Positions 7,705 through 42,078 of a DNA stretch of 64,000 nucleotides are shown here, piece by piece. The translations under genes and the position numbers were made by a program. Source of the DNA: a virus. Lineage: Duplodnaviria > Heunggongvirae > Uroviricota > Caudoviricetes. The stretch's first letter is position 1. The number at the start of each line of letters is the position of its first letter. The stretch is from positions 6,073-70,072 of IMG/VR virus record IMGVR_UViG_3300035682_000012. One strand, written 5' to 3'. The notes beneath the pieces were generated by a model. That model was not told the origin of the DNA. It did not search any database and saw only the letters and a program-made list of their open reading frames with translations.

Positions 7705-8397
7705 CTATATTAATTGGTTTCTTTTCTCAAATGGTTTTTCAAATTTTTCCCAAACAAACGATTTTAATTCATCATTTATTATTAATTTATTTGTTCTTTT
7801 TGTTGATTTGTTTTTATTTTCTAATATCAATCTTTCACCAAATTTATTTTCAATAAAATCTACAAATTTATCTATGTCTTTAATATCAAACTCATATGTA
7901 CATTTTTTATTACTTTTCCAATATTGTTCAGAAATCAATGTGGTACTAATTAATAAGTTAGGCATATTGTTAATTTCTACTAATTTCTCTTGTCCCGGTT
8001 TTAAAAAATTGTTAATACATTTTAAAGTTCCGGTTTCTGTTGCTAAATGTAAATTATTAATAAAATTATTGTCAAATATGGTATAAATAATTTCGTTAGT
8101 TAAATCTTCCCATTTACATATTGGTTCAAATGGAAGTTCATATTCAATTATATCCCAAATATGGTTTATTGAACTCAACCATTTATCAAACCAATCTCTA
8201 GTAATACACACACTTTCTTTATTTCCAAAATATTTTAAAGATGCATCTAACGATACGTGAATATGTTTATTATGTGTTGATTCTCTATGGTATTTTTCTG
8301 ATTTTATTTTAGAATCTAATATTGCGTTTTCTATTGAAACACTAGCACACTTAGGTGTAATTATCCATATAATATTATCATTTATTAAATAAGACAT
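7705..8397 (-). CDS. sulfotransferase-like protein (tentative)
   Basis: 'IITPKCASVSI' resembles the 5'-PSB P-loop (PK.G[ST]T); 'ITRDWFDKWLSS' resembles the 3'-PB RDP.xR..S motif. Confidence 0.4.
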   Translation of the reverse strand: MSYLINDNIIWIITPKCASVSIENAILDSKIKSEKYHRESTHNKHIHVSLDASLKYFGNKESVCITRDWFDKWLSSINHIWDIIEYELPFEPICKWEDLTNEIIYTIFDNNFINNLHLATETGTLKCINNFLKPGQEKLVEINNMPNLLISTTLISEQYWKSNKKCTYEFDIKDIDKFVDFIENKFGERLILENKNKSTKRTNKLIINDELKSFVWEKFEKPFEKRNQLI

Positions 8398-8399
8398 TA

Positions 8400-8717
8400 T
8401 TATAACATTGTTTTATTGTTTTTAGAATTAGTGATATATCCATATTTAATAAAATGTTCTGTTTCTACATCCTTCCACTTATGTAATGGACATGAACCTT
8501 TTTTATCTAAATGTGTTTTTTTAGTATATACTTTTGCGGATAGTGGACATCCACATTGACCACATTTTAATGACCACTCTTTTCCATTTAAAATTTCCTG
8601 TTTATGTGGACACGTTATACATATTGCAAATCTATTATCTGCTAATTCCTTTTGTTCTGGTGTATGATTTATTTTACTATACCACGCACCTATAATTTCT
8701 TTAAAATCTAATTTCAT
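8400..8717 (-). CDS. Cys-rich zinc-binding protein (105 aa)
   Basis: 'CITCPHK ... CGQCGCPL ... CPLH' cysteine clusters. Confidence 0.5.
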   Translation of the reverse strand: MKLDFKEIIGAWYSKINHTPEQKELADNRFAICITCPHKQEILNGKEWSLKCGQCGCPLSAKVYTKKTHLDKKGSCPLHKWKDVETEHFIKYGYITNSKNNKTML

Positions 8718-8718
8718 A

Positions 8719-9300
8719 TTATAATAATGTTTTTTTGTAATCTTTTTTTTCTATCAATTTTACCCAATTAACTAAAGTATAACGAGTGCCACTTTTTATC
8801 ATCTGTACCCTATGTTCAATATTAGATAAAAATAGTATTAAATTACCCGTACCCTTTTCAATTGTTAATATTTCATTTTTTTCATCTTTTATTTGTAAAT
8901 CACCTTCTTTATAATCATCATTTAATTGTATTACTAATGAACAATATCTATCATAATCTGATACCTTATCTTCAATCACATCTTTGTGCCAATTAAAATG
9001 TCCACCCGGATGATATTCAGTAAACTGAAATTGACTTTCTTCAAAATCTAAATCAAACCCCTTAACAAAAATATGTTTATTTAATAATTTACTCATTTTT
9101 TCTAATAAAAATGGAAATTTTTTATAGTATGGGTAAAATACTTGATTTGATTTTCTAACATCTGTGTTAATATTATCGTCCATATAATCGGTAACAATTT
9201 TTGATGGGACTAATTCTAATTCTTTTAATGAAAAATCTAATATCTGATTACATTCTTCTTTTGTTAAGAAGGTGGGTTCTATTGTATATGTAAATGCCAT
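8719..9300 (-). CDS. 2OG-Fe(II) oxygenase (prolyl 4-hydroxylase-like)
   Basis: 'YHPGGHFNWHKDV' (HxD) ... 'IEHRV' second His. Confidence 0.6.
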   Translation of the reverse strand: MAFTYTIEPTFLTKEECNQILDFSLKELELVPSKIVTDYMDDNINTDVRKSNQVFYPYYKKFPFLLEKMSKLLNKHIFVKGFDLDFEESQFQFTEYHPGGHFNWHKDVIEDKVSDYDRYCSLVIQLNDDYKEGDLQIKDEKNEILTIEKGTGNLILFLSNIEHRVQMIKSGTRYTLVNWVKLIEKKDYKKTLL

Positions 9301-9312
9301 AACTTATTTATA

Positions 9313-9843
9313 TTATAATAATGATTTTGTTTTTTTGGTGTTATAGTTAACCGGCATCCAATGTAAAAAAAATTGTAACACTCTTTCATTTTCATTACAA
9401 ATTAATATGTCTCTCCAATGTATTGTTTTATCCGCATCAAATAATAGGATACCATCGCCTGCATTTATATTAAAACAATGTGGTTGGTTATTAATTTCCG
9501 CACAAATGGGCCATTCTTTATCAATAGTGGATTCTAAACATATAGACATTGTAACACTAATATCCGTTCTATCTATGTGTTTTTCTAAATAAGAATTATT
9601 TTTATATTGTCTAACATATGTGTTAACATTTGTTAAATCATCTATATTACAATTAATTTCTAAAATTTTTGATTTTAACGTATCCAAATATGTGTTGAAT
9701 ATGTACGAAGGTTCGAATCCATACGAATAACCAGTATCTTTTGGTATATCAAAAGAAGCGTTAATCTTTTTTTCAATATCGAATTGGTTTGTAAGATTAA
9801 TACATTCTTCTTTTGTTAATATACCTTTTATAAGGTGTATCAT
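9313..9843 (-). CDS. probable 2OG-Fe(II) oxygenase-like protein
   Basis: 'LEKHIDRTD' (HxD) and a later 'IHWRD'; adjacent to another oxygenase. Confidence 0.4.
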   Translation of the reverse strand: MIHLIKGILTKEECINLTNQFDIEKKINASFDIPKDTGYSYGFEPSYIFNTYLDTLKSKILEINCNIDDLTNVNTYVRQYKNNSYLEKHIDRTDISVTMSICLESTIDKEWPICAEINNQPHCFNINAGDGILLFDADKTIHWRDILICNENERVLQFFLHWMPVNYNTKKTKSLL

Positions 9844-10014
9844 ATAACTAATTATTAGATGATTATTAAATCACTATGAGTTTGCGATTACTATTAAATT
9901 ACCAATTGTTGTCATTGTGGTATTTAAAGTATTGATGTCTGTATTTGATATTATGTTTGCCATTTTATTTTATTTTATACTATATTAATATATTTTTTTA
10001 GTTGATTCTTTTTA

Positions 10015-11505
10015 TTAGCAGGTGAATGAAACACACGTGCTGTAATAACAATACGGGTCATTTTTAGGACACGATTCACATGCGCTATAACAGGAACTAC
10101 ACGCCGCCCCCGGACAAGATACTGAATTATGTTCTATTGAAACGTATGATTGGTTATTGGTTGAACCCGTTGTTTTTGTTAGAAATAACATAGCCTTATC
10201 AACCGAAATAAACCATCCTGAAAATACTCGTTTGGATTGTATATTAGATACTATCGTTTTTCTTACAAACGAAATATTACCATCAGTTGTATCTAATAAT
10301 AATACCACATCACCCGCTATTAAATTAAATAAAGCGTGAAACACAACTATACCTTCTCTTTCTATTAAATATCTTGAACCCATAGTATCTTCCCAAGTAC
10401 TATTATCTTCAAATGTTAGTGTATTTAAAAAAGTTAAAACATTTACTTTTTGTTTATTAGTAACAATATTATTAGAATAAATTGCGGTTGATGCTAATGT
10501 ATTATAGTCTAATGAACCAAATGTATTTGTTATATACCTATCAATGTTAAGTCCATTTTCATTTGGTATCTCTATTGTTTTAATAACGTCACCAATCTGC
10601 AATTCTAATGCGGTTTTAAATGTACCATCGGATAGTTCAACTTCATCGGTATCTACTAATTTAGGTAACCATGGTGTATTTGCCACTGTGTTATAGCTTG
10701 ATTTAAAGTTTGTATCTACTTCAAATGTAGTTGAATTATATGTTACATTATCTAATAACATATTTTGATTTAATTTTGTATATTGTCCTATTTGAATTGA
10801 CTCTAATGTTGCTGGATATAAAATATTTAAACTTCTTAATACAAACGAATGTCCCTCCCATTTTTTAGTAGGGTTATATAGATATTCCATTAAAAAATAA
10901 TCAGATGTTACGTTTTCTAATACTACATCTAATTCTGTTTGATTTGATACTTTATAAAATTTAGGATATTGTTCTTTATCATATCCCGGATATCTAGCTT
11001 TTAAAATAAAATTAGGATGCTCTCCATTATCATTAATATTTGTAATATTATTAACTAATGTGTTTGATTCATTCATATATGCAAATTGTGAACCAAAGGT
11101 TGAATCCTTTATTAAATTCATAAAGTTCACTTTATCTCTACAATATGTATCATCTACTAATGCGGTTGTATCATATGCACTTCTAATAATTAAAGTTTCT
11201 GCATTATCATCAATATATGGAATAGTAATTGCCGATTCACCAACTATATGAAATGCGTATATTATACTATTATTATCACAATACGTTTTTAGTTTTGCAT
11301 CCAATTTTTCTAACTGTCCGATGTAATGAATAGATGTAAAATTATTGGCTTTAATAAACGCGTCAAGTGCTGTTAAATCTAAACAATCGATATCTTCTTC
11401 TACTTTTTCAGGGCCATCCCAACCTACCGCTGTATTGATTTCAATTGGTTTTAAATTACCATCTTTGTCGTACATAAAGTCCGAACCTATTAATACTGTT
11501 CTCAT
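10015..11505 (-). CDS. hypothetical protein with Cys-rich C-terminus (496 aa)
   Basis: Long clean ORF; C-terminal 'SCPGAACSSCYSACESCPKNDPYCYYSTCVSFTC'. Confidence 0.55.
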   Translation of the reverse strand: MRTVLIGSDFMYDKDGNLKPIEINTAVGWDGPEKVEEDIDCLDLTALDAFIKANNFTSIHYIGQLEKLDAKLKTYCDNNSIIYAFHIVGESAITIPYIDDNAETLIIRSAYDTTALVDDTYCRDKVNFMNLIKDSTFGSQFAYMNESNTLVNNITNINDNGEHPNFILKARYPGYDKEQYPKFYKVSNQTELDVVLENVTSDYFLMEYLYNPTKKWEGHSFVLRSLNILYPATLESIQIGQYTKLNQNMLLDNVTYNSTTFEVDTNFKSSYNTVANTPWLPKLVDTDEVELSDGTFKTALELQIGDVIKTIEIPNENGLNIDRYITNTFGSLDYNTLASTAIYSNNIVTNKQKVNVLTFLNTLTFEDNSTWEDTMGSRYLIEREGIVVFHALFNLIAGDVVLLLDTTDGNISFVRKTIVSNIQSKRVFSGWFISVDKAMLFLTKTTGSTNNQSYVSIEHNSVSCPGAACSSCYSACESCPKNDPYCYYSTCVSFTC

Positions 11506-11541
11506 AATTTTATTTTTTCCTTATTATTTCTTATAAATATA

Positions 11542-11934: not shown

Positions 11935-11944
11935 GTATAACTAT

Positions 11945-12673: not shown

Positions 12674-12674
12674 T

Positions 12675-13088: not shown

Positions 13089-13090
13089 TT

Positions 13091-14558: not shown

Positions 14559-15752
14559 CTAAAACTTTAAGTGTTCTCGTAAGTGTGTATCAAATATAAG
14601 CCCATTACAATACTCTCTATTCTCATCCGCGATACCCATAGCAACCTCAATACGTTCTTTCCACTCACTATCACTCATATCCCTTAGCCACTCTATATTA
14701 CGGATTAAAGCGGGAATCCAACTACTATCGTATTGTTCAATCCGTTTTGAAATATCCCAATTAAAGTATATATCCCATAACTCATCCGTATATAGAGAAC
14801 GATAGGGAGTAAGTAAATTGCTTTCCATTAACTTATGTGCTAGAGGGTCAGTATGTATAAAGGGTTTACCTAAGTATAATAGCTTAATAGTTTTCTCATT
14901 GAACTTAATAAGATGTAAATGGGGAGATATAATAGGGAATGTTTCATACACTACTTCCATCTGAGAGTGTATAGTATGTTCTAAAAATTGATGTGTATAT
15001 GTGTTTCCATTCACTCCATTGTTTTGATTAGGATTAGCTAACTGAGGATTAAAATGGGGAGAAGTGTAGTTTAATAACGGCAAGTGTACTTTATTATATG
15101 TAGGTATAGTATTCGTTGTAAACTTTAATTCTACCTTATCATTTTGGAGAAAGTGTTTTGCTAATCCTATCCTTACCCTATCCGTCAACTTATTAATATG
15201 TAGACCTACTCTATGCTTTTTAGGATGATGTTTAAATACCTCACTACCATAGAAAAATATCTCACCCGGAAATTGGCCATTGTTATAATAGCTTTGTAAT
15301 GCTACCTTATTAGAAAAGATAAAATTATTGTATTTGATTAGGGGTATATCCCAAATTATCTTTACACCCTTCATTTTCTCTATTCGTTCTAATAAAGTAG
15401 TTGATGTTCTTGTTTCATTCAACATAAAATAATCTTCGGTATGTTTTGCTACAACAATTAGGACCTTTGTAGTTTCATCTAAACCCTCTAACCTATCTAA
15501 TAGAGGAAGGTAATCCGATTCCATTACACCGATAGATATGAGTAATACATTAACCCAACCCGGTCTAAATGTGCTTGTAGTGATATGTGTTAGATTATTA
15601 TATTCCCATAAGAAGTTATACCCATCTAATCTAAAATTACGGGTAGTATGGTTAGAGGACCCGAGACGGGATATATTTTTTATCTCATCCTTTGTCCAAA
15701 AATAGGGTTCTATTGATTGCCAATCCGCAATGAAGTTTACATTTATATCCAT
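14559..15752 (-). CDS. GT10-family fucosyltransferase-like glycosyltransferase, paralog
   Basis: 'EVVYETFPI ... FNEKTIKLLYLGKPFIHTDP' FucT-like motif; clear paralog of 15743..17029. Confidence 0.55.
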   Translation of the reverse strand: MDINVNFIADWQSIEPYFWTKDEIKNISRLGSSNHTTRNFRLDGYNFLWEYNNLTHITTSTFRPGWVNVLLISIGVMESDYLPLLDRLEGLDETTKVLIVVAKHTEDYFMLNETRTSTTLLERIEKMKGVKIIWDIPLIKYNNFIFSNKVALQSYYNNGQFPGEIFFYGSEVFKHHPKKHRVGLHINKLTDRVRIGLAKHFLQNDKVELKFTTNTIPTYNKVHLPLLNYTSPHFNPQLANPNQNNGVNGNTYTHQFLEHTIHSQMEVVYETFPIISPHLHLIKFNEKTIKLLYLGKPFIHTDPLAHKLMESNLLTPYRSLYTDELWDIYFNWDISKRIEQYDSSWIPALIRNIEWLRDMSDSEWKERIEVAMGIADENREYCNGLIFDTHLREHLKF

Positions 15753-17029
15753 CCTAATTCTTTTATCCTACCAAATATTGAGGTGTTATAATATACATCT
15801 TCGAAGTGTTTAATATTTTCTTTAGCGATAAGGTTTGCCTCATTTATCAAATCGTTATATTCCATTTCATCCATATCTAACAATTGTTGGATTCTCTCAA
15901 ACAATAAATCTAACCACATTGTGTTACCTACCTCTATGTAAGTATCTTTATTGAAATAACTAGCATTATACATTTGTAATAACTCCGGTCCTAATAAGCA
16001 ATCATATTGTTTAAACCCATACTCTTTTACTAAATGATACATAACAGGATCAGTATTAATAAAAGGTTTACCTAATAAAATATTCTTTAATATTTTTTCA
16101 GTAGGTTTTCTATGTGCCTTTGATGTTTCTTTGGTATTAGTTTCATATACTATATCGATATCTGAATTGATAAATAGTTTAGCTAACCCTAAGAAATAAT
16201 TTGGTGGGTGATACCCATGCTCTGCGTTTTTGTTTGGATTGTACCTTAGTGTACTACTTCGTTCTATAAAGTAAGAATCATGCTCCATATACTTTTCTAA
16301 TGGATAATTAGTTTCACTTAATAATCTATTATGATGTACGAACTGATGTTTATAGTTAATAGTTAAAAACATTTTAGGATGTGATATATAATCCGTAGTA
16401 ACAAATAGTTTAACCAGTCTATACCTTTCACCGATACCATTACCGATTGTACCCATATGAAACCCAATTCGTTTATCTTTTTTTAATCTACTGAATACAT
16501 CTTTGTTATAATAGAAATTAGTAATACCATCCCCACTCATTTCTTTTTGTAAATTAATATAATCGTAGAAATATATTTTAGGTTCAAACACTGCCGTCTC
16601 TGTATTAATCAATGGTGCGTTATGTATAACCTTTATATTATTACATTTAGAAATTTTATCAAACATTATATCCTCAATCTCACCTCTAATACTAAATATG
16701 TTTTGTTCTAAATTACCCCCAATGATTATAATTTTTACGTCCGTATTGATATATTTGTTTACTAAATCACATAATGGTTGATAATCCTCTGCAAACATTC
16801 CTATCTTTATAATATGAATTGTGTCACTACATAAATCCGTATCAGGTATAGGTTTACCTACAACGTGCTCAATGGTATATCCACCCCACTCACATTTTTG
16901 TTCCATAAAATTTTTGGTAAGGTCTTTGATTTCATCCAATTCTGCGTATGTGAAAAGTAACCCATTATCCTGCCGTTGATAGAAATTTATTTTCTTCATT
17001 GTAACATATTTAGTTTGTGTACTACACAT
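15743..17029 (-). CDS. GT10-family fucosyltransferase-like glycosyltransferase, paralog
   Basis: 'DIVYETNTKE ... PTEKILKNILLGKPFINTDP ... EYGFKQY'. Confidence 0.55.
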   Translation of the reverse strand: MCSTQTKYVTMKKINFYQRQDNGLLFTYAELDEIKDLTKNFMEQKCEWGGYTIEHVVGKPIPDTDLCSDTIHIIKIGMFAEDYQPLCDLVNKYINTDVKIIIIGGNLEQNIFSIRGEIEDIMFDKISKCNNIKVIHNAPLINTETAVFEPKIYFYDYINLQKEMSGDGITNFYYNKDVFSRLKKDKRIGFHMGTIGNGIGERYRLVKLFVTTDYISHPKMFLTINYKHQFVHHNRLLSETNYPLEKYMEHDSYFIERSSTLRYNPNKNAEHGYHPPNYFLGLAKLFINSDIDIVYETNTKETSKAHRKPTEKILKNILLGKPFINTDPVMYHLVKEYGFKQYDCLLGPELLQMYNASYFNKDTYIEVGNTMWLDLLFERIQQLLDMDEMEYNDLINEANLIAKENIKHFEDVYYNTSIFGRIKELGWI

Positions 17030-29250: not shown

Positions 29251-29284
29251 ATACTTAAAGATACGAAAAATTACCCATTTTACC

Positions 29285-29313
29285 AAAGAAAAAGGGTACT
29301 TTTTATGTACCCC
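29285..29313 (-). terminator. rho-independent terminator
   Basis: Minus-strand GGGUAC-AUAAAAA-GUACCC followed by UUUUUCUUU, just downstream of the stop of 29380..30177. Confidence 0.5.
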
Positions 29314-33284: not shown

Positions 33285-34079
33285 TTAATCTCCTTTTTCT
33301 TTTATATAAGTATTATGATTTATGTAATTAAGTATGTTTTTGGCTATAAATTTATGTCCAGTTTCTCCAAAATGTGAATCTTTTACTATTTTATTAGTTT
33401 CAAATTCAATAATCAAATCAGTATTCCAATCTATATGATTACTACATTCATATGCCGTTTCTACAATTCCTCTGTCACATTCAAATTTAATTAAATTAGG
33501 AAAATTTAATATAGATGTATTTTCTTTTATACACTGCTCTATATTTGGATAACTCCATAAAAATACATTTTTAGTTACATTACTTTTAATGTAATTTAAT
33601 AATGATAATATTATTACAACAGAATTTATCGATATCCAATCTTCAAAATCTAAATGTGCCATATAAAATTGACGATATTTATCATTATCATATTTTAAAC
33701 TACCGCCGGCTTGAAATGCAGTAGTTTCCCACTTTCCTTCATTGTTTTTATACGGAACTTCAAATCTATGATAATGTGTTAATTGAAATAATACAACATC
33801 ATTTTCTTTTATATTTGGTAGGTCTTTTAATAGCTTTTTAAATTGTTGTGAATTACTATCACCACCTTCTGCTCTTAATATCCAATCTAAGTTCAATTCA
33901 TTTGCTATTATTTCAAAAAATGGCATTCCCTTTCTACCTAACCATTTGGTATAGTCAGTTTCCATAAAATTAATATCATTCTTTATTCTAGGTAATCCTG
34001 GATCTTCAAAGTGTGAATATCCTAATAGATTGCCGGCACTATGTGAACATCCATATATGTATAACTTATCCATTTTCAT
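33285..34079 (-). CDS. SGNH/GDSL-like hydrolase, paralog 4
   Basis: 'YIYGCSHSAGN' block I; C-terminal 'DSHFGETGH'. Confidence 0.6.
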   Translation of the reverse strand: MKMDKLYIYGCSHSAGNLLGYSHFEDPGLPRIKNDINFMETDYTKWLGRKGMPFFEIIANELNLDWILRAEGGDSNSQQFKKLLKDLPNIKENDVVLFQLTHYHRFEVPYKNNEGKWETTAFQAGGSLKYDNDKYRQFYMAHLDFEDWISINSVVIILSLLNYIKSNVTKNVFLWSYPNIEQCIKENTSILNFPNLIKFECDRGIVETAYECSNHIDWNTDLIIEFETNKIVKDSHFGETGHKFIAKNILNYINHNTYIKEKGD

Positions 34080-34749
34080 TTATGTATTTGTGTATCATTT
34101 CTGCAACTCGTCTATGTGATTCCGTACTCATATGACCATCTTGCATTTCACCACTTTCCGCCAAAGTTGTTAATTTATAATGCTTAGTGTATCTACCCAA
34201 TGTATTAAATTGTTCATCACCAAATTTTATTGTAACTTTTGAATTTACATCCTCTCTAAAAAAGTATTCGTAATCTTTACACATCCAATCTTCATAGAAA
34301 AACACATAATATTTAAATCCAATCAATTTACTTAATTCTTTTAAGAAAATATGTGTTTGTATTATTGGATGTTGTGATTTTAGGTCTGTAATTTTATACC
34401 AACTTTCATTATTAATATCATTTGGATTTGGATTAATTCCTTTACGTTCTGCCCATGCACCGTTGTATATTTCTTTTTGCTGTGTATCATACCAAACGGA
34501 CCTACTAAAATGTGTAAATTGTACTATTAGTAAATCATCTTTTTTTATGTTATTGATATTTTTAAAGATTTCGGTAACAATACTATCATTACCTTGTCCA
34601 CTCTTATCCGGTTGATTATATTTTAAATCAAACCATTCACTTAAATATTTTCCATATGGTTTTATACCATCGGTTTTTGCTTCATCTTTCCAAATAGTAG
34701 TAGAATGTGAACATCCAAATATCCAAATATTATTTTGTTCCATTTTCAA
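34066..34749 (-). CDS. SGNH/GDSL-like hydrolase, paralog 5
   Basis: 'WIFGCSHSTT' block I; C-terminal 'DGHMSTESH'. Confidence 0.6.
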   Translation of the reverse strand: MKMEQNNIWIFGCSHSTTIWKDEAKTDGIKPYGKYLSEWFDLKYNQPDKSGQGNDSIVTEIFKNINNIKKDDLLIVQFTHFSRSVWYDTQQKEIYNGAWAERKGINPNPNDINNESWYKITDLKSQHPIIQTHIFLKELSKLIGFKYYVFFYEDWMCKDYEYFFREDVNSKVTIKFGDEQFNTLGRYTKHYKLTTLAESGEMQDGHMSTESHRRVAEMIHKYINENG

Positions 34750-35461
34750 AATATTTTATTATAATATCTGCCCAAAGTTTGTGACCGGGTGCACCAAAAT
34801 GTCCATCGGGAACCTCACCATTTGTTTCTTGTGCTAATGCCATTTTATTATCATATACAAATGAACTAAATTTTTTATATTTATCTGGTATTAAAAATAC
34901 GTCGGTATCTACACCATCTAATATATCATTATCATGTGTCCATATACATACATTATCACATATCGAATTTAATAAATATTTTACTGCTTTGATTTGTCGA
35001 ATCAATCTATCTTTAAATACTTTATTATTTCTATTGTTTACAATTTCTAATAATCCTTGTCTACTTAAAGCATTATTTTGAAATACAATATCCGATGTTG
35101 TTGATATACTATTTATGTTAGTTGGTGATAATATATTATTTATGAAAACATCAAATCTTTCAAAATAAGATATTCCAATTATAATATAATCATCTTTCTT
35201 TATATCTTTTATATGTGTAAATACATTATCAAATATCATTTCATTTGATGCACCACCACTAGCTGTATTGATTAATTCTAAATTGAAATGGTTAGACACA
35301 TAATCAGGATAGATTAGAATTTCCTCTCCATCCTGTTTGTTTAAATATTTTCTATACGAAATCGTAGTTGGTGAATATGGGTTTTCTTTAGGTGACCGAA
35401 TACACCCATCACCTGCGGTAAACGAATCACCGAAGCACCATAATTTATTTTGTGTAACCAT
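34730..35461 (-). CDS. SGNH/GDSL-like hydrolase, paralog 6
   Basis: 'WCFGDSFTAGDG' (canonical GDS block); C-terminal 'DGHFGAPGH'. Confidence 0.65.
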   Translation of the reverse strand: MVTQNKLWCFGDSFTAGDGCIRSPKENPYSPTTISYRKYLNKQDGEEILIYPDYVSNHFNLELINTASGGASNEMIFDNVFTHIKDIKKDDYIIIGISYFERFDVFINNILSPTNINSISTTSDIVFQNNALSRQGLLEIVNNRNNKVFKDRLIRQIKAVKYLLNSICDNVCIWTHDNDILDGVDTDVFLIPDKYKKFSSFVYDNKMALAQETNGEVPDGHFGAPGHKLWADIIIKYFENGTK

Positions 35462-35478
35462 TATTTAGTATTAATATA

Positions 35479-35745
35479 CTACCATTCAATCAACTTAGCA
35501 ATAGGCCATGCTGGATTTGAAATACTTACTAAATGTGCTTCTTCTACTAATCTTTCTTTTAATTCATCATCTTCGATGTCTAAAAAATTAACATGTTCGT
35601 ATTTCACTAATTCGTCTTCAGCAATTGTTATTGTTGAAAATGTATTATCTTTATTTAATACAATAAGTCCAAATAATTTTGCTTCTACTAATTCTACATT
35701 TCCAGCGTGCTCTAAAAATGGTCCAAATGCTTCTAAATTTATCAT
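35479..35745 (-). CDS. hypothetical protein (start at internal MINLEAFG)
   Basis: The ORF-table extension overlaps the kinase gene; the internal ATG removes the overlap. Confidence 0.45.
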   Translation of the reverse strand: MINLEAFGPFLEHAGNVELVEAKLFGLIVLNKDNTFSTITIAEDELVKYEHVNFLDIEDDELKERLVEEAHLVSISNPAWPIAKLIEW

Positions 35746-35780
35746 TTTGTTTTGTTTTATATAAATATATGTTTTTATTA

Positions 35781-36512
35781 TTACAATGTAACTACACCAC
35801 GTTTTTGTACAACTTTTGTTGCACAATCATTTGCGTATTCAATACTAACTTCTATACTTTTTGTTTTTAAATAACTAACTACTAATGAAGCCATAAAGGT
35901 ATCACCTGCACCACTCAAATCTCTAACCTCAATATCGTTGTTAACCGGATATGTAATACCATCATACATTGCACCTCGTTCACTCATTGTTATAATTAAT
36001 CTTTCTCGCCACATTTCGTATTCCTGTCCTTTACAATTTTCCCACTCAACTTCATTTATCTTAATGAATGTATAATTACGCATTTCTGCTGATAATGGTT
36101 TCTTTGTATCTATAAAAGTTAATGGATGTGAATCACTAATCAATTTCAAATCTGATAATGATAGAAATCCTTTGTCATAATCACTTACAATAACTGCATC
36201 ATAATCATTGAATGGAACTCTTTTTACATCAAATGAATTACTAACCTTATCATTACTATCAATTCTGATAATCATATGATTTGCTTTTTCCTCTACATAT
36301 CTAGTCTTTGTAATTTGTTCTTTGTTAGTAACCAACTCAACTTTCTCAGCTCCCAACGATTTAAGATTAGCTACTACATTACCACTCATACCCATATTGG
36401 TAATTGTTCTACTCGGTTCAAATATTGGCACAGGTCCTTCGGGACATAATCTTTTACAATAACCATATACAAATACATCAGTACAACTATCACCGATAAC
36501 TAAAACTTTCAT
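35781..36512 (-). CDS. pfkB-family carbohydrate kinase (HldE/RfaE kinase-domain-like)
   Basis: N-terminal 'KVLVIGDSCTDVF ... PEGPVPI' and C-terminal 'DLSGAGDTFMASLV' pfkB signature. Confidence 0.65.
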   Translation of the reverse strand: MKVLVIGDSCTDVFVYGYCKRLCPEGPVPIFEPSRTITNMGMSGNVVANLKSLGAEKVELVTNKEQITKTRYVEEKANHMIIRIDSNDKVSNSFDVKRVPFNDYDAVIVSDYDKGFLSLSDLKLISDSHPLTFIDTKKPLSAEMRNYTFIKINEVEWENCKGQEYEMWRERLIITMSERGAMYDGITYPVNNDIEVRDLSGAGDTFMASLVVSYLKTKSIEVSIEYANDCATKVVQKRGVVTL

Positions 36513-36568
36513 AATAACGATTTCCTATAAGTATTAATATGTTCAAAAAAATGATTAGCCATTCGTTG
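36508..36568. repeat. 61 bp direct repeat (copy 1), spanning the end and junction of SGNH paralogs
   Basis: 'ttcataataacgatttcctataagtattaatatGttcaaaaaaatgattagccattcgttg', identical except for one base to 37271..37331. Confidence 0.7.
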
Positions 36569-37282
36569 GTTAAACTTTTTTAGTATTTCTACTGACATGA
36601 TTTGTTGTCCTTTTACACCAATATGTCCATCTTGCATCTTACCATTACTTTCATCGGAAATAGTTGCTTTGTGTTCTTTGAAACAATCCTCTCCACCTAT
36701 ATATTTGTTCTCAAATTTAAGAAAGTATGGTTTTTTTAGAATTTCAATTTCATGTATATTTGGAGAATCTGGAGATTCTAAACACCAAAATACAACATTT
36801 TTTGTTTTTAGTAAATTTATTAATTTTTCAAATCTATTAAGTTGTCTGTGTTTGTATGCCGGTAATCCTGCAAAATAAACTGCAAAATCTACTAATGTTT
36901 CGTGTTTATGGTCAGTCATATCATCATCACCTATTAAGTTTACGTTAATATGTCTACTATCATCATATCTAACAATTGTATGTAAAAAACTAAATGAGCT
37001 TTTGTGTGGAACATCAAATCTACTATAATATGTAGCTTGGATTACAACATAATCGTTTTCTCCAATCTTATCTGCGTTATTTAAAATGTTGTCCAATATA
37101 TAGTCATTGGATGCACCTACTCTAGCGTGATTATGTAGTTCCAAATTTAATTCATGTGCTACTATTTCACACCAATATCTTTTATCAATATCATCGGATA
37201 AAGTAACTTCATAGAATGGGTCAGAATTATTAAAGCCGTGCCCATGTGAAAAACTATCACCGAAAATCCATAACTTATTCAT
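36509..37282 (-). CDS. SGNH/GDSL-like hydrolase, paralog 7
   Basis: 'WIFGDSFSHGHG' block I; 'DGHIGVKGQ'; C-terminal 'MANHFFEHINTYRKSLL' shared with paralog 8. Confidence 0.65.
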   Translation of the reverse strand: MNKLWIFGDSFSHGHGFNNSDPFYEVTLSDDIDKRYWCEIVAHELNLELHNHARVGASNDYILDNILNNADKIGENDYVVIQATYYSRFDVPHKSSFSFLHTIVRYDDSRHINVNLIGDDDMTDHKHETLVDFAVYFAGLPAYKHRQLNRFEKLINLLKTKNVVFWCLESPDSPNIHEIEILKKPYFLKFENKYIGGEDCFKEHKATISDESNGKMQDGHIGVKGQQIMSVEILKKFNQRMANHFFEHINTYRKSLL

Positions 37283-37331
37283 AATAACGATTTCCTATAA
37301 GTATTAATATATTCAAAAAAATGATTAGCCA
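37271..37331. repeat. 61 bp direct repeat (copy 2)
   Basis: See copy 1; encodes the shared C-terminus '...MANHFFE[HY]INTYRKSLL' plus the gene junction. Confidence 0.7.
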
Positions 37332-37950
37332 TTCGTTGATGTCCTAACTCATTAAAATGTTTATCAATATTACCATTCGGTTCTATAATATGTTGTTCCT
37401 CTAATTGGTCTTGCCACTTTGTATAAAACGAATAGTTTGTAAATTCGTTTGTTGAATTGGGTGCAGGTATAAAAGTAATAATCTCTTTGTATTTTTTAAA
37501 ATCTGAATGAACTTGTCCTTCTGCACTCCAATAGTAAATTGATATTTTTTTTTTAATACACCAATTGTTTACTTGTTTATTAAACCAATTATAATTAACC
37601 TTCCTCATTTCTACTAAATTATCTGCAAATGTTCCACCATTAGAATGTCTACTAAAATAAGCTTCTAAATCTATTAATTGTGCTTTTGTTGGATAAATAT
37701 TATACCTATCAAAGAATGTAAATTCAAATACAACCTTATCGCCTGGCTGAATTTCATCTCTCCTATCTATGAATTGCAATATAGATACCCAATTACATTG
37801 TCCAGGACGTGCACTATTTACTAATTCTAAATCTAATTTATCCGCCAATACATACGGCCAACTAATTCTTAATGTATCTTCATCAGTAGGTTGAATCAAA
37901 TTCATTCCGGTTGAAAACGAACAGCCAAATACCCAAAGTTTATTTTTCAT
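37279..37950 (-). CDS. SGNH/GDSL-like hydrolase, paralog 8
   Basis: 'WVFGCSFSTGMN'; C-terminal 'GHQRMANHFFEYINTYRKSLL'. Confidence 0.6.
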   Translation of the reverse strand: MKNKLWVFGCSFSTGMNLIQPTDEDTLRISWPYVLADKLDLELVNSARPGQCNWVSILQFIDRRDEIQPGDKVVFEFTFFDRYNIYPTKAQLIDLEAYFSRHSNGGTFADNLVEMRKVNYNWFNKQVNNWCIKKKISIYYWSAEGQVHSDFKKYKEIITFIPAPNSTNEFTNYSFYTKWQDQLEEQHIIEPNGNIDKHFNELGHQRMANHFFEYINTYRKSLL

Positions 37951-38092: not shown

Positions 38093-38095
38093 ATC

Positions 38096-38806
38096 TTATT
38101 CTTTTATTTCTATTGAATTCCAATCATTTGTTTCAGTGTCCCATATCCAAATAGGATTAGCTAATACATAACGAATGTTTAATAACGATGCATTCAAACT
38201 TATCATACCCTCTAACGGCACTTCGGTTTCCTCTTTAATCATTCCACCACATTCATGTATGTGTCCAAATACGTGGACCTTAGGGTGTATGTCATTGATT
38301 CTATACGCTAACATCTCACATCCTACATTATAGTTGCCTCTCACACTCACATCAAATCTACCATATCTAGGTGTATGTGTCACTAACAAATCTACACTTC
38401 CGTCAGTTGGTACTTTTTGCCATACCGAATCTAATTCTGCATTTCTTTGTTTCATAAATGCCCACATACCAAATACAGGAGACCATGGACTACCATAGAT
38501 ACCTAACCCATCGATGTTTATAAAACTATCTTCTAAATAGGTAACTCCATAATTATTTGCCAATAACCAATTACGCCTATCGGTTTGCTGTAATACAAAA
38601 TCATGATTGCCCGCTACTAATACTTTATGTTTTGCATTTTGTTTACTAAACCAATTCATAAATAAATCAGTTTCTTCAAATTCACCATAACGAGTACAAT
38701 CCCCACTATGTACAATAATATCTACATACGGCAATTCACCATATAATTCAGTAATCTCAAGGTGTCTACCATGAGTGTCACTTAGGAACATTATTTTCAT
38801 AACCAA
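38096..38806 (-). CDS. calcineurin-like metallophosphoesterase
   Basis: 'MFLSDTHG' (DxH), 'HSGDCT' (GD), 'VAGNHDF' (GNHD/E), 'GHIHE'. Confidence 0.75.
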   Translation of the reverse strand: MVMKIMFLSDTHGRHLEITELYGELPYVDIIVHSGDCTRYGEFEETDLFMNWFSKQNAKHKVLVAGNHDFVLQQTDRRNWLLANNYGVTYLEDSFINIDGLGIYGSPWSPVFGMWAFMKQRNAELDSVWQKVPTDGSVDLLVTHTPRYGRFDVSVRGNYNVGCEMLAYRINDIHPKVHVFGHIHECGGMIKEETEVPLEGMISLNASLLNIRYVLANPIWIWDTETNDWNSIEIKE

Positions 38807-39935
38807 TTAATTTTTCTATTTCTAATATTGTATTGGTAGGATTAAAGCCTTCCATTATAAATTTATAATTCTTTTCTAATCTTTGTTGAACATTATCCGA
38901 TTCATATATTGCTTTAACTTCATCAATTGATAATTCATTGATTCGTTTTAAAGCATCTACAAATATTTCTATTCTTTCAGTTTCCGTTTTATTATCATCC
39001 CATCCAATTTCTAATCCAAATACATCTTCAAATGTTTCGATTCCATATCCTCTTAATGCTGAGTTAAACCCATTACATTGTAAAGATAAGAATATATTTT
39101 TACATAACCAAGATCTAATTGTTTTTTCTGTCAACCTTAAATCATCACCACTATCACCACTACTTTCAATAGTAAATGAAATATATGAATCTAATGAGTT
39201 TGTATTAATAGTATTATACATATCATTTGTATCTGAGCTTTGTATCTGTCCTAATGCTACCGCATCTTTGTTCTCATATATAAAAAACTCATTTACAAAT
39301 TGATTTAAGTATTCGGTATCAATTATTAAATCATCATTACCACTACGTCCCCCACCCGGTCTATTTCTATAATTAATAAAATCTTGTATTGTAGAAAGAT
39401 TACCAAACGTATCTTTTTTTATTATATTACCAAATGTATAATAACATTGGCTTAATTGAATATCTGCTTTTTTTAGCAATTCAAATATTTTAAGTCTTCG
39501 TAAATTTATAGACCTATTAAAGAAATTAAACTTCTTTGTTCTATTATTGTTTGGTATATAGGCTACTTTTGAAAATAAGTTTGTAAATGGATAACATCTA
39601 TTTTTAAATGATAAATCATTTTCAATACTATACACATCTAAATGCGTTGTTAAGAAATATATAGTATGATTTGTATTTCTACTTTCTATAATTGCTTTAC
39701 GCCTATGTTCATTACAATATTCATGTTTAATAAACAAAAATATATTTAATTTTATATTTGGATTTACCGATTTGTTTATATTATCAATTGTATCTAATGT
39801 AGTAAATAATACATCATTATCTTTAAGATTACCAATGTAACTAAAATCATTATGTTGTAATTCTATAAGATTATATCCAATTGATTCAAAATATTTAAAA
39901 TCTAAACCATAAATAGAATCGTAATAAAATGTCAT
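38778..39935 (-). CDS. GT10-family fucosyltransferase-like glycosyltransferase, divergent paralog
   Basis: 'FTIESSGDSGDDLRLTEKTIRSWLCKNIFLSLQ ... GYGIETF'. Confidence 0.45.
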   Translation of the reverse strand: MTFYYDSIYGLDFKYFESIGYNLIELQHNDFSYIGNLKDNDVLFTTLDTIDNINKSVNPNIKLNIFLFIKHEYCNEHRRKAIIESRNTNHTIYFLTTHLDVYSIENDLSFKNRCYPFTNLFSKVAYIPNNNRTKKFNFFNRSINLRRLKIFELLKKADIQLSQCYYTFGNIIKKDTFGNLSTIQDFINYRNRPGGGRSGNDDLIIDTEYLNQFVNEFFIYENKDAVALGQIQSSDTNDMYNTINTNSLDSYISFTIESSGDSGDDLRLTEKTIRSWLCKNIFLSLQCNGFNSALRGYGIETFEDVFGLEIGWDDNKTETERIEIFVDALKRINELSIDEVKAIYESDNVQQRLEKNYKFIMEGFNPTNTILEIEKLIGYENNVPK

Positions 39936-39936
39936 T

Positions 39937-40134
39937 TTATATTTTTAAATCTTTAATCGTATCAACTATATCTGCTTCATCTTTATAAATTTCATATACC
40001 TTATCCAATGCTTCATTATAGGCTGCTTCTGCTATTTTGTGTGCATCATCTAATTTAATATATGAAAATGTATCACCATCTTTGTTTTTAAGCGAAAGGA
40101 AGCCAGTTGCTTTTAATTTGTTTTCCCATTTCAT
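39937..40134 (-). CDS. hypothetical protein (65 aa)
   Basis: Minus-strand ORF. Confidence 0.45.
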   Translation of the reverse strand: MKWENKLKATGFLSLKNKDGDTFSYIKLDDAHKIAEAAYNEALDKVYEIYKDEADIVDTIKDLKI

Positions 40135-40309
40135 ATGTACTACTTTTTTGAATAAGTATCATCCTTTGTAAGTTTCCGTAATAAATCTTGCTGACCTTTT
40201 GTAAAGTTTCCTTTATCCGTCAGATGTTTATCTAATGATTCTAATAATTTAAGTTTACGGGTAAAGTAATCTCTCGCTTGCTCTAATAATAATCTATCAT
40301 ATCTGCTCA

Positions 40310-41521
40310 TTAATTAAATGTTTTAGTTATAGGGTCTTGTTTCCAATGATATATTTTTCCATTTATAGTAATACCATCTAAATAATAAACATTATCTTTC
40401 TGATATAAATTTAATTTGGACATCCATGCTTTTGAATTAGTTTGATATGTTATAATATTGTTTTCTTTAAACGTTTTATAATTATCAGTTGTTTTATACA
40501 CACTTAATTGAAATCCATTATACCAATTAGTACCACTATCGATTGTTCTATTTAATATTATTTCAGTTGTACCATCATTATCGATGTCGGCTGCTACAAT
40601 ATCCAATACCAATGCCCATCCATTTATATTTGGTTCACATATAATTGTATTGTTACTAAATTCATTATTATTATTCCAAAATATAGTAGATTTAGAATAC
40701 CTATCTGAATTTGGGAATCCTTCAAACCCAGTCATTATAATATCCAATTGATTATCTTCATTTACATCTAATATTTCAATTGTTAAATAACCGGATGCTC
40801 CTTTATATTTCCAATCGGTTGCATTAAAACTACCATTGCCACTACCATATAAAACTTTAATGCTATTTCCGGCAGTTACAACGATATCAATATTACCATC
40901 TTTATTTAAGTCACCACTTGCTCCCCCATGCCAAAAGGATTTACCAATATCAGGTAATGTTCCTATTTTATATTTGCCTGTTTTTTTGTCACTTAATAAC
41001 AATGTGTTGTTTTCGCCTGGCCAATAGTTATTACTTTCATATCCATGATTACATAAAAACAAATCCGGTAAACTATCATTATTAAAATCACCAACAATTG
41101 TTTTTCTTGTTGTTTGATTACCGGTGTAGTCACTCGGTAACATACTATTATCACTAATATATGTTTTACCTTTATTTATAAACACATCTGGTTTTGAATT
41201 AAATTCGCCATCCGATGTGTATGGATAAAAAATATCTTCTAATCCATCGTTATTCATATCTACATATACCCAACCATTATTACTATTACCATTGTATTTT
41301 CCAATATTCCTAATACCAAGGTTTGTTCTAAGTGAATCAATATTGATAAAGTTTTTTGTATTTTTTAATTCATATGATGTCTTACCATAATATATAATTT
41401 TTGGTAATTCAGTCGGTGTTAATACAATCGGTGTTACTACAATTGGTGGTATCACACTCGGTATAGTTTTATTACAACTAACCGCTATAACTAATATAAT
41501 TCCTAATACTATATTTTTCAT
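40310..41521 (-). CDS. exported FG-GAP/VCBS-repeat (integrin-alpha-like beta-propeller) lipoprotein
   Basis: Signal peptide plus 'AVSCNKT' lipobox; repeated 'DxNxDGxxD' blades (DMNNDGLEDIF, DFNNDSLPDLF, DLNKDGNIDIV, DVNEDNQLDII, DIDNDGTTEII). Confidence 0.6.
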   Translation of the reverse strand: MKNIVLGIILVIAVSCNKTIPSVIPPIVVTPIVLTPTELPKIIYYGKTSYELKNTKNFINIDSLRTNLGIRNIGKYNGNSNNGWVYVDMNNDGLEDIFYPYTSDGEFNSKPDVFINKGKTYISDNSMLPSDYTGNQTTRKTIVGDFNNDSLPDLFLCNHGYESNNYWPGENNTLLLSDKKTGKYKIGTLPDIGKSFWHGGASGDLNKDGNIDIVVTAGNSIKVLYGSGNGSFNATDWKYKGASGYLTIEILDVNEDNQLDIIMTGFEGFPNSDRYSKSTIFWNNNNEFSNNTIICEPNINGWALVLDIVAADIDNDGTTEIILNRTIDSGTNWYNGFQLSVYKTTDNYKTFKENNIITYQTNSKAWMSKLNLYQKDNVYYLDGITINGKIYHWKQDPITKTFN

Positions 41522-42078
41522 ATCATTTTATTATTATTACGATACCTGTTATTATTATTTAACAATTCACTTGCTTTTAAATTATTAACATCTATATTTA
41601 GATATTCACATAATTTTTTAAGTTCGGTTTTTGTTTTAAAAATGCCTTCATATGTTATATGAAATGCATCTATACTAACGATATCTTTATTTTGTTTAAT
41701 AAATTCTCTTTCTATTCTATGTATTTCATATATTCTGTCTGAAATCCATTTATCATTTATTTTATATTTTGAATGATAATCATAATTTGGTTTTTCATCA
41801 CAATATAATAAACTAACTGCACTATCAAATGTATCAGTACGTGTTAGTGTTATTACTTTATCAAACTTTGATATATAATTTGGTATATCTTTAATATGAT
41901 GATGTATTTCTTTAACAATAAAGTTATTACTATTTAACTCAAACTCAACCGGAAATAGTGGATTATGTAATTCGTTTATTGTTTTGTACCCCAACTCTAT
42001 TCCCAACCATTTTAATAAAGTTGTAGAACCACTCCTCATATTAGCAATAATTAATATTCTCATACTAATTTTTAACAA
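41518..42078 (-). CDS. sulfotransferase-family protein
   Basis: 'ILIIANMRSGSTTLLKWL' matches the PAPS 5'-phosphosulfate-binding P-loop ([PR]SGST.L). Confidence 0.5.
   Translation of the reverse strand: MLKISMRILIIANMRSGSTTLLKWLGIELGYKTINELHNPLFPVEFELNSNNFIVKEIHHHIKDIPNYISKFDKVITLTRTDTFDSAVSLLYCDEKPNYDYHSKYKINDKWISDRIYEIHRIEREFIKQNKDIVSIDAFHITYEGIFKTKTELKKLCEYLNIDVNNLKASELLNNNNRYRNNNKMI

Follow-up and report, generated by a model that had tools for sequence, protein, structure and literature searches.

We interpret three genes of a large, uncultured, low-GC tailed phage as a virus-encoded sulfotransferase trio, and the variable island anchored by one of them (C1) as a locus for the sulfation of a glycoconjugate, a reading that we hold with moderate confidence. 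The window (the whole stretch of 64,000 nucleotides that was analysed) carries all three genes on the minus strand, C2 at 21 kb and C3 at 33 kb from C1 (Table 1); the largest of the related contigs are at least 335 kb long. Taken together, relatives' profiles, predicted structures and fold searches support placing each of C1, C2 and C3 in the PAPS-dependent sulfotransferase fold. Within that fold the three are mutually very divergent and apparently restricted to viruses; pattern scans of GTDB species genomes recovered no relative of C1 or C3, and a tblastn search of deposited phage genomes with C3 gave no match.

Translation of the three ORFs reproduced every motif string named in the original prediction: 'ITPKCAS' and 'ITRDWFDKWLSS' in ORF 7705-8397 (C1), 'NKTGS' and 'FTRNPIDRFITTYNWF' in ORF 29380-30177 (C2), and 'ANMRSGSTTLL' in ORF 41518-42078 (C3). 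Because relatives begin at the same points, the true starts of C2 and C3 are likely to be the ATG codons at 30162 (MKGYF...) and 42063 (MRILII...), respectively. Direct Pfam searches matched none of the three window proteins to a sulfotransferase model, and direct PDB sequence searches with them returned no matches. The similarity emerges from families and predicted structures.

Table 1. Features of the window discussed in the text
Feature	Position	Strand	Description
GDSL-like protein	3584-4360	-	C1 operon
Continuation of C1 operon	3584-6607	-	Tightly packed, ORF overlaps 0-4 nt
SDR-like fragment	4357-4914	-	Partial, sub-threshold match; C1 operon
2OG oxygenase	4911-5432	-	Pfam 2OG-FeII_Oxy_3; C1 operon
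'GT-like' paralogue	5432-6607	-	~390 aa; C1 operon
Radical SAM enzyme	6608-7651	-	Directly downstream of C1; Pfam Radical_SAM E 6.5e-8
C1	7705-8397	-	230-aa sulfotransferase-fold protein; closest structure heparan sulfate 2-O-sulfotransferase (HS2ST)
f2	8400-8717	-	105 aa, Cys-rich; stop 2 nt before C1 start; constant C1 partner
2OG-Fe(II) oxygenase, P4H-like	8719-9300	-	Directly upstream of f2 and C1; Pfam 2OG-FeII_Oxy_3 E 2.2e-14
f3	10015-11505	-	496 aa; conserved ...EHN motif, then hypervariable Cys-rich C-terminal tail
YgjV / SemiSWEET-like membrane protein	29020-29286	-	88 aa; just downstream of C2; Pfam Imp-YgjV 36.7 bits (cut-off 23.5), MtN3_slv 22.8 bits
C2	29380-30162	-	260-aa Sulfotransfer_2-like protein
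SGNH-like	30162-30989	-	GCSHS (block I), ASGGGTG, DLHPG; overlaps C2 start by 1 nt; paralogue of 548-1384; no Pfam match
Five SGNH/GDSL-like paralogues	33285-34079, 34066-34749, 34730-35461, 36509-37282, 37279-37950	-	Array 33285-37950
PfkB-type kinase	35781-36512	-	Within the 33285-37950 array; PfkB E 4.3e-13
Metallophosphoesterase	38096-38806		Pfam-confirmed
'GT10-like' paralogues	5432-6607, 38778-39935, 54580-55677, 55670-56926		~390 aa
FG-GAP repeat (beta-propeller) protein	40310-41521	-	Start overlaps C3 stop; Pfam FG-GAP_3 E 4.1e-22
C3	41518-42063	-	181-aa minimal Stf0/Sulfotransfer_3-like protein
Four-helix membrane protein	42065-42415	-	116 aa; ends 1 nt before C3 start; Pfam SMR (Multi_Drug_Res) E 0.063 at best
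HAD_SAK_2	43510-44034		Pfam-confirmed

The evidence supports a resemblance of C1 to HS2ST and the Sulfotransfer_2 family. In the C1 model the proposed 5'-phosphosulfate-binding (PSB) loop, P15-K16-C-A18-S19, joins strand E9-12 to helix H19-28, and the proposed 3'-phosphate-binding (3'-PB) motif, R67...K72..S75, places R67 and S75 on strand E61-66 / helix H69-87; the conserved H45-x-H47 contributes the candidate catalytic base (H45/H47). C2 appears closest to Sulfotransfer_2, an assignment supported at the level of sequence. An exhaustive profile search yielded only 31 relatives, all distant, 17 of which match the Pfam model (PF03567) at E<=1 (best E 4.8e-5), whereas the window protein has no match to it at that threshold. 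The family profile has the sulfotransferase 3rnl as its top PDB match (E 0.015); of its 14 PDB matches 10 are sulfotransferases, and each of these alignments is anchored on the RNPxDR motif. Conserved residues comprise K18-x-G20-S21, R63-N-P65-x-x-R68-x-x-T71-x-Y73 and D114-x-H116-x-x-P119-Q120, in which the invariant first element would form the PSB loop, R63 and T71 the putative 3'-PB pair, and D114/H116 the candidate base.

For C3 a confident AlphaFold2 model (pLDDT 89.3) supports a minimal Stf0/Sulfotransfer_3-like enzyme, predicted to be structurally closest to Stf0: the top Foldseek match is Stf0 1tex (E 3.8e-5), and sulfotransferases account for 29 of the 33 matches at E<=1e-3. Among 14 relatives, four match Sulfotransfer_3 and three match Stf0 (best E 0.0029); the window protein matches neither PF13469 nor PF09037, the gathering threshold not being reached. 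Its invariant residues (R10-S-G12-S13-T14, K51, R75...S84 and Y138-E139) hold across 36 sequences of 22-93% identity. The model runs from strand E2-7 through the RSGST loop into helix H13-24 and places R75 and S84 on strand E69-74 / helix H78-90; by conservation, K51/E139 is the candidate base.

Three features of the superfamily, namely a 5'-phosphosulfate-binding loop, a 3'-phosphate-binding motif and a fold closest to solved sulfotransferases, were found. In the models of both C1 and C3 the PSB motif occupies a strand-loop-helix and the 3'-PB motif a strand-helix; each family conserves the residues of the two motifs at 95% or more, down to 22-23% identity; and pairwise hhalign comparisons of the three families bring both motifs into register (P 8.6e-4, 1.5e-3 and 0.014). 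Relatives' profiles, AlphaFold2 and Foldseek (for C3) and the conserved PAPS-site motifs bear out the original prediction of three sulfotransferase-like genes. Compared with the HS2ST/Sulfotransfer_2 (PF03567) carbohydrate sulfotransferases, the phage proteins lack a membrane anchor and are soluble, with lengths of 230-260 aa, none of the window proteins reaches any Pfam threshold, and C1 has Trp, Tyr or Lys at the position of the family's Pro in 'RDP'. C3 shares with the mycobacterial trehalose sulfotransferase Stf0 (PF09037) the RSGST loop, the Arg...Ser 3'-PB pair and a C-terminal (T)YE motif, but at 181 aa, against ~240-270 aa, it is without most of the acceptor-binding cap.

If the motif matches were due to chance, the proteins would fall outside this enzyme class, and the missing direct Pfam and PDB matches accord with that view. 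A combined pattern, framed post hoc (a PSB-like loop within the N-terminal 45 residues and, 35-80 residues on, R[DNT][PWD]xx[RKD]xx[ST]), nevertheless matches C1 and C2 and occurs 0 times in 500 shuffles of the whole proteome (132 window ORFs), and the evidence from fold, profiles and conservation converges; chance was already disfavoured and we regard it as exceedingly improbable. Very unlikely, too, is the possibility that one or more of these proteins, most of all C1 and C3, are instead kinase-like P-loop enzymes with nucleotides or modified DNA bases as substrates. The DNA hypermodification pathway to which they would belong would draw on the 2OG oxygenases, radical SAM enzyme, carbamoyltransferase and glycosyltransferases as well. 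Against this, the Walker A motif GxxxxGK[ST] occurs in none of the three families, the loops being PK(C/N)AS, NK(S/T)GS and RSGST; the conserved Arg...Ser pair that follows strand four is the 3'-phosphate site of sulfotransferases and is absent from kinases; sulfotransferases rank above kinases in every search; and the APS kinase of the island points to PAPS.

In the window C1 is part of a tightly packed array that runs from 9300 to 3584. The f2 protein, for which no family match was found, lies beside C1 in 46 of 48 variants, and f3 is a partner in 41 of 44. Past the EHN junction the f3 tails are hypervariable and rich in Cys, Tyr and Ser; long f3 homologues carry a near-threshold Peptidase_S74 domain, weak Hint-domain matches were also obtained, and f3 is possibly fibre- or spike-like. 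The family of the oxygenase at 8719-9300 is present in 46 of 50 C1 neighbourhoods, the GDSL-like family in 25 and the GT-like family in 16. The predicted radical SAM enzyme, confirmed by Pfam, is 89% identical to its counterpart in a 335-kb contig and occurs in 23 of 46 variants.

Other enzymes proposed for the window fared unevenly. Two of three P4H-like 2OG oxygenases stand (4911-5432 and 8719-9300), the third (9313-9843) showing the HxD...H pattern only, and the SDR amounts to a partial match. The supposed SGNH esterases form genuine paralogue families with visible block-like motifs (GCSHS, ASGGG, DLHPG), and homologues of the 33285-37950 array adjoin C1 in relatives; their Pfam matches are sub-threshold (Lipase_GDSL E 3.6e-4 for the array, below cut-off; scores of 21.2 and 17.5 bits, with cut-offs of 23.6 and 32.9, respectively). 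The metallophosphoesterase and the HAD-like phosphatase are present, but repair or nucleotide functions are more plausible for them than a role in glycan metabolism; the HAD protein is probably not a glycan enzyme because it represents the RNA-repair 'Swiss Army Knife' type, with a DNA ligase as neighbour. The 'GT10-like' genes gained no support as fucosyltransferases: no glycosyltransferase match was found in Pfam (19 members) or PHROGs, a PDB profile search gave spurious deoxycytidine kinase matches only, and hhalign against relatives' GT9 and GT4 enzymes gave a probability below 1%. Their sole likeness to the GT10 signature is an invariant E...EK motif, and a fucosylated-glycan pathway is unproven. 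None of the window ORFs tested matches a recognisable glycosyltransferase family, and the window holds no carbamoyltransferase.

The distribution of C1 among related phages is more informative. C1 is present in 70 IMG/VR viral contigs of up to 335 kb, and a C3 homologue lies within ~3 kb of it on the same strand at 39 of the 70 loci (21 of the 44 variants with enough flank), directly adjoining it at L061, L062 and L067. This linkage holds down to 27-29% C1 identity (e.g., L071-L073 and L061/L062) despite rearrangement of the island. At L050, C1-, C2- and C3-type genes fall within 6 kb, and one 287-kb viral contig carries all three families. An APS kinase (PF01583; 144 aa, 63.2 bits against a cut-off of 21.1, E 3.6e-17) is found in relatives only, ~4 kb upstream of C1 in 18 of the 37 variants with enough flank; a six-frame HMM search of the window found no APS kinase or other gene of PAPS synthesis. 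An adjacent 127-aa nucleotidyltransferase of the island was considered as ATP sulfurylase (Sat) and rejected as NMNAT-like. The invariant core of the island is f3, f2 and C1, to which about half of the related phages add C3 and the APS kinase. The notion that these families are individually scattered fails because their distribution is not random. Together these data support a sulfation module in related phages, and since C1 and C3 adjoin an APS kinase gene there, a sulfation step run by the phage is likely.

Also recurrent in the island of relatives are a carbamoyltransferase, methyltransferases, GT4 and GT9 (TibC-like) glycosyltransferases, radical SAM enzymes, several 2OG oxygenases and genes for SGNH-like esterases/acyltransferases. 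At their N-termini the GT9 enzymes bear the TibC domain known from protein heptosyltransferases, and the oxygenases include an Asp/Asn beta-hydroxylase and P4H-like enzymes, both protein-modifying families. The island holds glycan-unrelated genes as well (Hsp20, HD, peptide deformylase, NMNAT-like and UvdE), so that some genes may co-occur through synteny inherited within one phage lineage and not through a functional link.

Rhizobial Nod factors are decorated by the sulfotransferase NodH, with PAPS synthesis by NodPQ, the carbamoyltransferase NodU, the methyltransferase NodS, the fucosyltransferase NodZ and the acetyltransferase NodL. Bacteria also possess clusters for sulfated capsular polysaccharides, e.g., Vibrio KMM 8419 (PMC11641403). 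Like both, the phage island pairs a PAPS-supply gene with sulfotransferases and has a NodU/CmcH-type carbamoyltransferase, methyltransferases, glycosyltransferases and acyl-handling enzymes; unlike them it is phage-encoded and without ATP sulfurylase, polymerase, flippase or chitin-synthase backbone genes, and the likeness is one of functional analogy only, not cluster homology. Glycan-modifying sets cited in PMC12619734 include those of mycobacteriophage virion glycosylation, the chlorovirus and mimivirus glycan machinery and seroconverting phages. These resemble the island in being virus-encoded enzyme sets in variable genome regions. To our knowledge, and in the literature searched, no such system combines sulfotransferases with an APS kinase.

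If the island serves sulfation, C1, C2 and C3 would work in the cytoplasm of infected cells, because they carry no signal peptide. PAPS would come from the host, with an extra supply from the phage APS kinase wherever a relative carries one, and sulfate would be transferred from it to hydroxyls of a glycoconjugate built or remodelled by the co-located enzymes. A glycan is suggested as acceptor by the neighbouring genes; candidates are a virion fibre protein with such decoration and an intermediate of a host envelope polysaccharide, a protein (fibre) being as possible an acceptor as a glycan. The fuller reading, in which the enzymes are true sulfotransferases whose acceptor is not a glycan but a protein or peptide, is one to which we give a low probability. 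C1, the 2OG hydroxylases, the radical SAM enzyme and f2 would then modify the tail or body of f3, in a manner perhaps analogous to RaxST/RaxX tyrosine sulfation or to hydroxylation and glycosylation of viral fibres. In its favour, f3, f2 and C1 are the sole near-invariant trio; the f3 tails and the Peptidase_S74 fibre-chaperone domain of some homologues fit such a substrate, as do the hydroxylases and the TibC domain.

It is likewise unlikely, in our judgement, that the three are independent auxiliary genes with no common pathway, the apparent toolkit being an artefact of reading the many accessory genes of a large phage genome and the conserved neighbourhoods a product of common descent in one lineage. 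The 21-33 kb separating them in the window, the different local context of each and the mixed gene content of the island would suit this account, as would the C2 homologues, which occupy other neighbourhoods, often near a metallophosphoesterase. Phage sulfotransferase genes are sporadically on record, with role unknown (PMC8290583), including Sulfotransfer_3 (PF13469) annotations from phages of OM43 and Synechococcus (PMC10580990). Yet the C1-C3 linkage outlasts both deep divergence and heavy rearrangement, and an APS kinase, with no obvious use except the making of PAPS, recurs in the same island.

A bolder extension of the glycoconjugate reading, which we regard as doubtful, is that of a large freshwater phage lineage with its own sulfation programme, in which f3 is decorated with a sulfated glycan. 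The phage APS kinase would provide PAPS for two or three sulfotransferases specific to the virus, which would be joined in decorating f3 by the hydroxylases, radical SAM enzyme, carbamoyltransferase and glycosyltransferases. If true, this would be a first case of bacteriophage-encoded biosynthesis of a sulfated glycoprotein, and the variable island would be a host-range or immune-evasion cassette.

Direct sequence searches of Pfam and the PDB were negative for all three candidate sulfotransferases, C1, C2 and C3, so that the original prediction of three sulfotransferase-like genes cannot be confirmed by simple search. It is supported by profiles of the relatives of C2, by structure models and Foldseek matches for C1 and C3, and by conserved motifs. 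Every peptide string quoted in that prediction was found in the three ORFs; judged from relatives, the true start of C2 is the ATG at 30162 and that of C3 the ATG at 42063.

A word-indexed search with C2 recovered close relatives only, and a shallow profile of these matched nothing in the PDB other than GCN5 proteins, which we judged spurious. Exhaustive HMMER searching of 1.84 billion representatives with a profile extended the family to 31 relatives, and no more; it was the addition of distant members that gave a signal in the PDB and Pfam where the shallow profile had given none. Scanned singly, 17 of the 31 match Pfam Sulfotransfer_2 (best E 4.8e-5) and two match Sulfotransfer_1. In the PDB the broadened profile scores best with a bacterial sulfotransferase (3rnl, E 0.015), and ten of its 14 matches there are sulfotransferases, every one aligned at the RNPxDR 3'-phosphate motif. 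Invariant or nearly so across the family are K18, G20, R63, N64, P65, R68, D114, H116, P119 and Q120.

For C3 the AlphaFold2 model (pLDDT 89.3, with relatives down to 30% identity) has the sulfotransferase Stf0 (1tex) as its top Foldseek match in the PDB (E 3.8e-5, probability 1.0). Sulfotransferases account for 29 of the 33 matches at E<=1e-3, the remaining four being adenylate-kinase-like P-loop proteins. Weak matches to Sulfotransfer_3 and Stf0 were found in four and three, respectively, of 14 relatives (best E 0.0029), and among 36 distinct sequences (22-93% identity) R10, G12, K51, R75 and S84 are at least 95% conserved. The C1 family comprises more than 200 proteins; a scan of 59 members against Pfam and of the profile against the PDB gave no sulfotransferase signal and no link by sequence to a known family, and the assignment of C1 thus came from structure alone. 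Foldseek E-values for the C1 model (pLDDT 89.8) are weak (0.03 or above), yet the top 22 matches are all sulfotransferases. In a set of 49 distinct homologues, with paralogues at 23-30% identity among them, P15, (K/R)16, A18, S19, H45, H47, R67 and S75 are at least 95% conserved. We regard C2 and C3 as sulfotransferase-fold enzymes with good confidence, and C1 with moderate confidence. Among known enzymes, C1 and C2 are nearest to HS2ST/Sulfotransfer_2 and C3 to Stf0/Sulfotransfer_3.

Two motifs for the cofactor PAPS, the 5'-phosphosulfate-binding (PSB) loop and the 3'-phosphate-binding (3'-PB) motif, connect the three families. In the C1 and C3 models a strand-loop-helix carries the PSB motif and a strand-helix junction the Arg...Ser motif, as in sulfotransferases. 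Pairwise hhalign comparison of the three family profiles places both motifs in register (P 8.6e-4, 1.5e-3 and 0.014); earlier runs with shallow family alignments were not significant. A combined pattern requiring both motifs at the right spacing, set up after the data had been seen, matches C1 and C2 and occurred 0 times in 500 shuffles of 132 window ORFs. The Walker A sequence GxxxxGK[ST] is absent from all three loops. The ORF at 30162-30989, which matched both regular expressions, was ruled out as a fourth sulfotransferase: its motifs stand only 21 residues apart and its sequence is SGNH-like.

Pattern scans of GTDB species genomes, a method of limited sensitivity, detected no relatives of C1 or C3. 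In IMG/VR the C1 family occurs at 70 viral loci, representing 50 distinct variants. All ORFs within 10 kb either side of C1 were clustered, and the fractions that follow count variants with adequate flanks. The variable accessory region around C1 (the island) has a near-invariant core of three genes: C1, a fibre-like protein, f3 (41 of 44 variants), and a small Cys-rich protein, f2 (46 of 48). A C3-family gene lies on the strand of C1, typically ~2.7 kb downstream, in 21 of 44 variants (39 of the 70 loci); at three loci (L061, L062 and L067) it directly adjoins C1, and the linkage is kept in L071-L073, where C1 is only 27-29% identical to that of the window. APS kinase, the enzyme that makes PAPS (144 aa; Pfam 63 bits against a cut-off of 21), is found ~4.2 kb upstream of C1 in 18 of 37 variants. 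The families are thus not randomly distributed; a random distribution is what the original prediction had named as telling against it. The kinase is independent support for PAPS chemistry. All three families come together within 6 kb at L050, and are present on one 287-kb contig, with C2 ~190 kb from the island. Seven loci (L010, L020, L035, L036, L038, L069 and L070) have tandem duplicates of C1, or a triplication further along the island; the copies are highly diverged, and each retains the PSB loop, an HxH motif and the 3'-PB motif.

Other recurring members of the island are a NodU/CmcH-type carbamoyltransferase (61-68%), a radical SAM enzyme (50%), large GT4/GT9 (TibC-domain) glycosyltransferases (30%), multiple 2OG oxygenases including an Asp/Asn beta-hydroxylase, GDSL-like genes and methyltransferases. 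The island also holds unrelated genes, for Hsp20, an HD protein, peptide deformylase and an NMNAT-like protein, so that inherited synteny may account for part of the co-occurrence. In relatives such as L007 a 127-aa NMN-adenylyltransferase-like gene and one for a DUF2061 membrane protein come after the APS kinase; both are also found without it. The 127-aa protein was considered as a mini ATP sulfurylase and rejected, since it is NMN-adenylyltransferase-like (PDB profile E 1.4e-6).

The island of the window phage is a reduced, dispersed version of that of its relatives. A six-frame HMM search with the relatives' island families found neither APS kinase nor carbamoyltransferase in the window, no APS kinase lies within ~4 kb beyond its left edge, and none of the ORFs tested could be assigned to a recognisable glycosyltransferase family. 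The PAPS source would have to be the host or a gene elsewhere in the genome. C3, 33 kb from C1, has a 4-TM protein on one side and an FG-GAP protein on the other; C2 is flanked by an SGNH-like gene and a YgjV/SemiSWEET-like membrane protein. At most of the loci L082-L091 (not L085 or L086) a metallophosphoesterase homologue and a ~227-aa gene lie 1-4 kb downstream of the C2 homologue, whereas in the window an SGNH array separates C2 from the metallophosphoesterase.

Features of the window (by window position) and of related loci
Feature	Position	Strand	Remark
"GT10-like" paralogues, ~390 aa	5432-6607; 38778-39935; 54580-55677; 55670-56926	-	
C1	7705-8397	-	230 aa
f2	8400-8717	-	105 aa; ends 2 nt before C1 start
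f3	10015-11505	-	496 aa
Neighbouring paralogous ORFs	14559-15752; 15743-17029	-	~400 aa each
UV endonuclease UvdE	24655-25524	-	
YgjV/SemiSWEET-like membrane protein	29020-29286	-	88 aa; downstream of C2
C2	29380-30162	-	260 aa
Band_7 (stomatin-like) gene	31706-32260	-	~1.5 kb upstream of C2
Tandem array of five SGNH/GDSL-like paralogues	33285-37950	-	broken by next entry
PfkB-family sugar-kinase-like gene	35781-36512		
Metallophosphoesterase	38096-38806		
C3	41518-42063	-	181 aa
HAD_SAK_2 phosphatase-like domain and ATP-dependent DNA ligase	43510-45147	-	
GP88-family protein	52828-53676	-	
CobS-like AAA_5/CbbQ ATPase and adjoining CobT-like protein	60747-63930	-	
f3 relatives	L069:3647-5578; L066:7222-9168		
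APS kinase, NMN-adenylyltransferase-like gene, DUF2061 protein	L007:5309-6346		

The broader claim was of a sulfated, fucosylated, acylated glycan pathway. The sulfotransferases and a linked sulfation module are upheld; the fucosylated and acylated pathway and its target are unproven. The "GT10-like" genes prove to be four paralogues sharing an invariant E...EK motif; Pfam, PHROGs, PDB profile and hhalign searches detected no link between them and any glycosyltransferase, GT10 included, which leaves fucosylation unsupported rather than disproved. Matches of the proposed SGNH esterases are sub-threshold, although two or three real paralogue families exist. The radical SAM, metallophosphoesterase and HAD assignments were correct, as were two of three 2OG oxygenases, the third showing only an HxD...H pattern. 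The HAD domain belongs to the RNA-repair HAD_SAK_2 type and stands beside a DNA ligase; these two and UvdE look like nucleic-acid repair functions.

The window is ~29% G+C, with uniformly negative GC skew and tightly packed ORFs, nearly all on the minus strand; no tRNA genes were found in its 64 kb. tblastn with C1, C2 and C3 against 50,697 phage records returned zero matches, and neither Megablast with 12 kb of the window nor tblastn with one 615-aa ORF found anything among deposited phage genomes. The DNA ligase and CobS-like ATPase best match huge uncultured phages (LR756511, LR756508), Microcystis phage Mel-JY01 and T4-like alphaproteobacterial phages. Metagenome contigs of up to 95 kb carry proteins identical to the window's, and IMG/VR viral contigs of up to 335 kb carry homologues. 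On these grounds we take the window to belong to a large uncultured tailed phage. To judge by the sample series, several of the source datasets appear to be freshwater lake metagenomes. The CobS-CobT pair is typical of large aquatic phages, and a CobT-like hit was the sole match when ten large window ORFs were searched against PHROGs. The window also encodes a GP88-family protein and two neighbouring paralogues without family match.

Beyond the observed fold, conserved cofactor motifs and linkage, both to APS kinase and among the sulfotransferase-like genes, the enzymes would perform cytoplasmic PAPS-dependent O-sulfation of a glycoconjugate built or remodelled by their neighbours. The acceptor could be an intermediate of a host envelope glycan, or the phage's own f3. 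In f3 a conserved (I/V)EHN junction precedes a hypervariable, Cys-rich tail of 30-50 aa; there are weak matches to Hint domains in the PDB, and long homologues end in a near-threshold Peptidase_S74 domain (a fibre intramolecular chaperone). On this sequence evidence, f3 could be a fibre- or spike-like protein that processes itself. Its neighbour f2 (CxxC...CxxCxC...C) has no family match.

Among the systems closest in logic is rhizobial Nod-factor decoration, in which NodH acts with NodPQ, NodU, NodS and NodZ; the likeness is one of analogy, the clusters not being homologous. The same holds for bacterial sulfated capsule clusters, which combine cysC with sulfotransferases (PMC11641403). Phage sulfotransferase genes are on record with a role described as unclear (PMC10580990), and reports of sulfotransferase and cysC genes in phages class them as auxiliary genes of unclear function. 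Within our incomplete coverage of papers no description of this module was found; the 'moraphage' paper (PMC12619734) was ruled out as an account of the lineage, containing neither the lineage nor any sulfur genes.

What is new is three highly divergent, apparently virus-specific families of sulfotransferase-like proteins, for which candidate active-site residues are defined, and their place in a recurring phage island that holds APS kinase, carbamoyltransferase and glycosyltransferases together with a hypervariable fibre-like protein. Because this context names candidate acceptors and partner enzymes, the role of phage sulfotransferases becomes a testable question. C3, a minimal predicted enzyme, would rank among the smallest known sulfotransferases, which makes it attractive for enzyme engineering. 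Should sulfate be added to a virion protein or to a host envelope glycan, phages would have a new means of altering surface charge, receptor recognition or superinfection.
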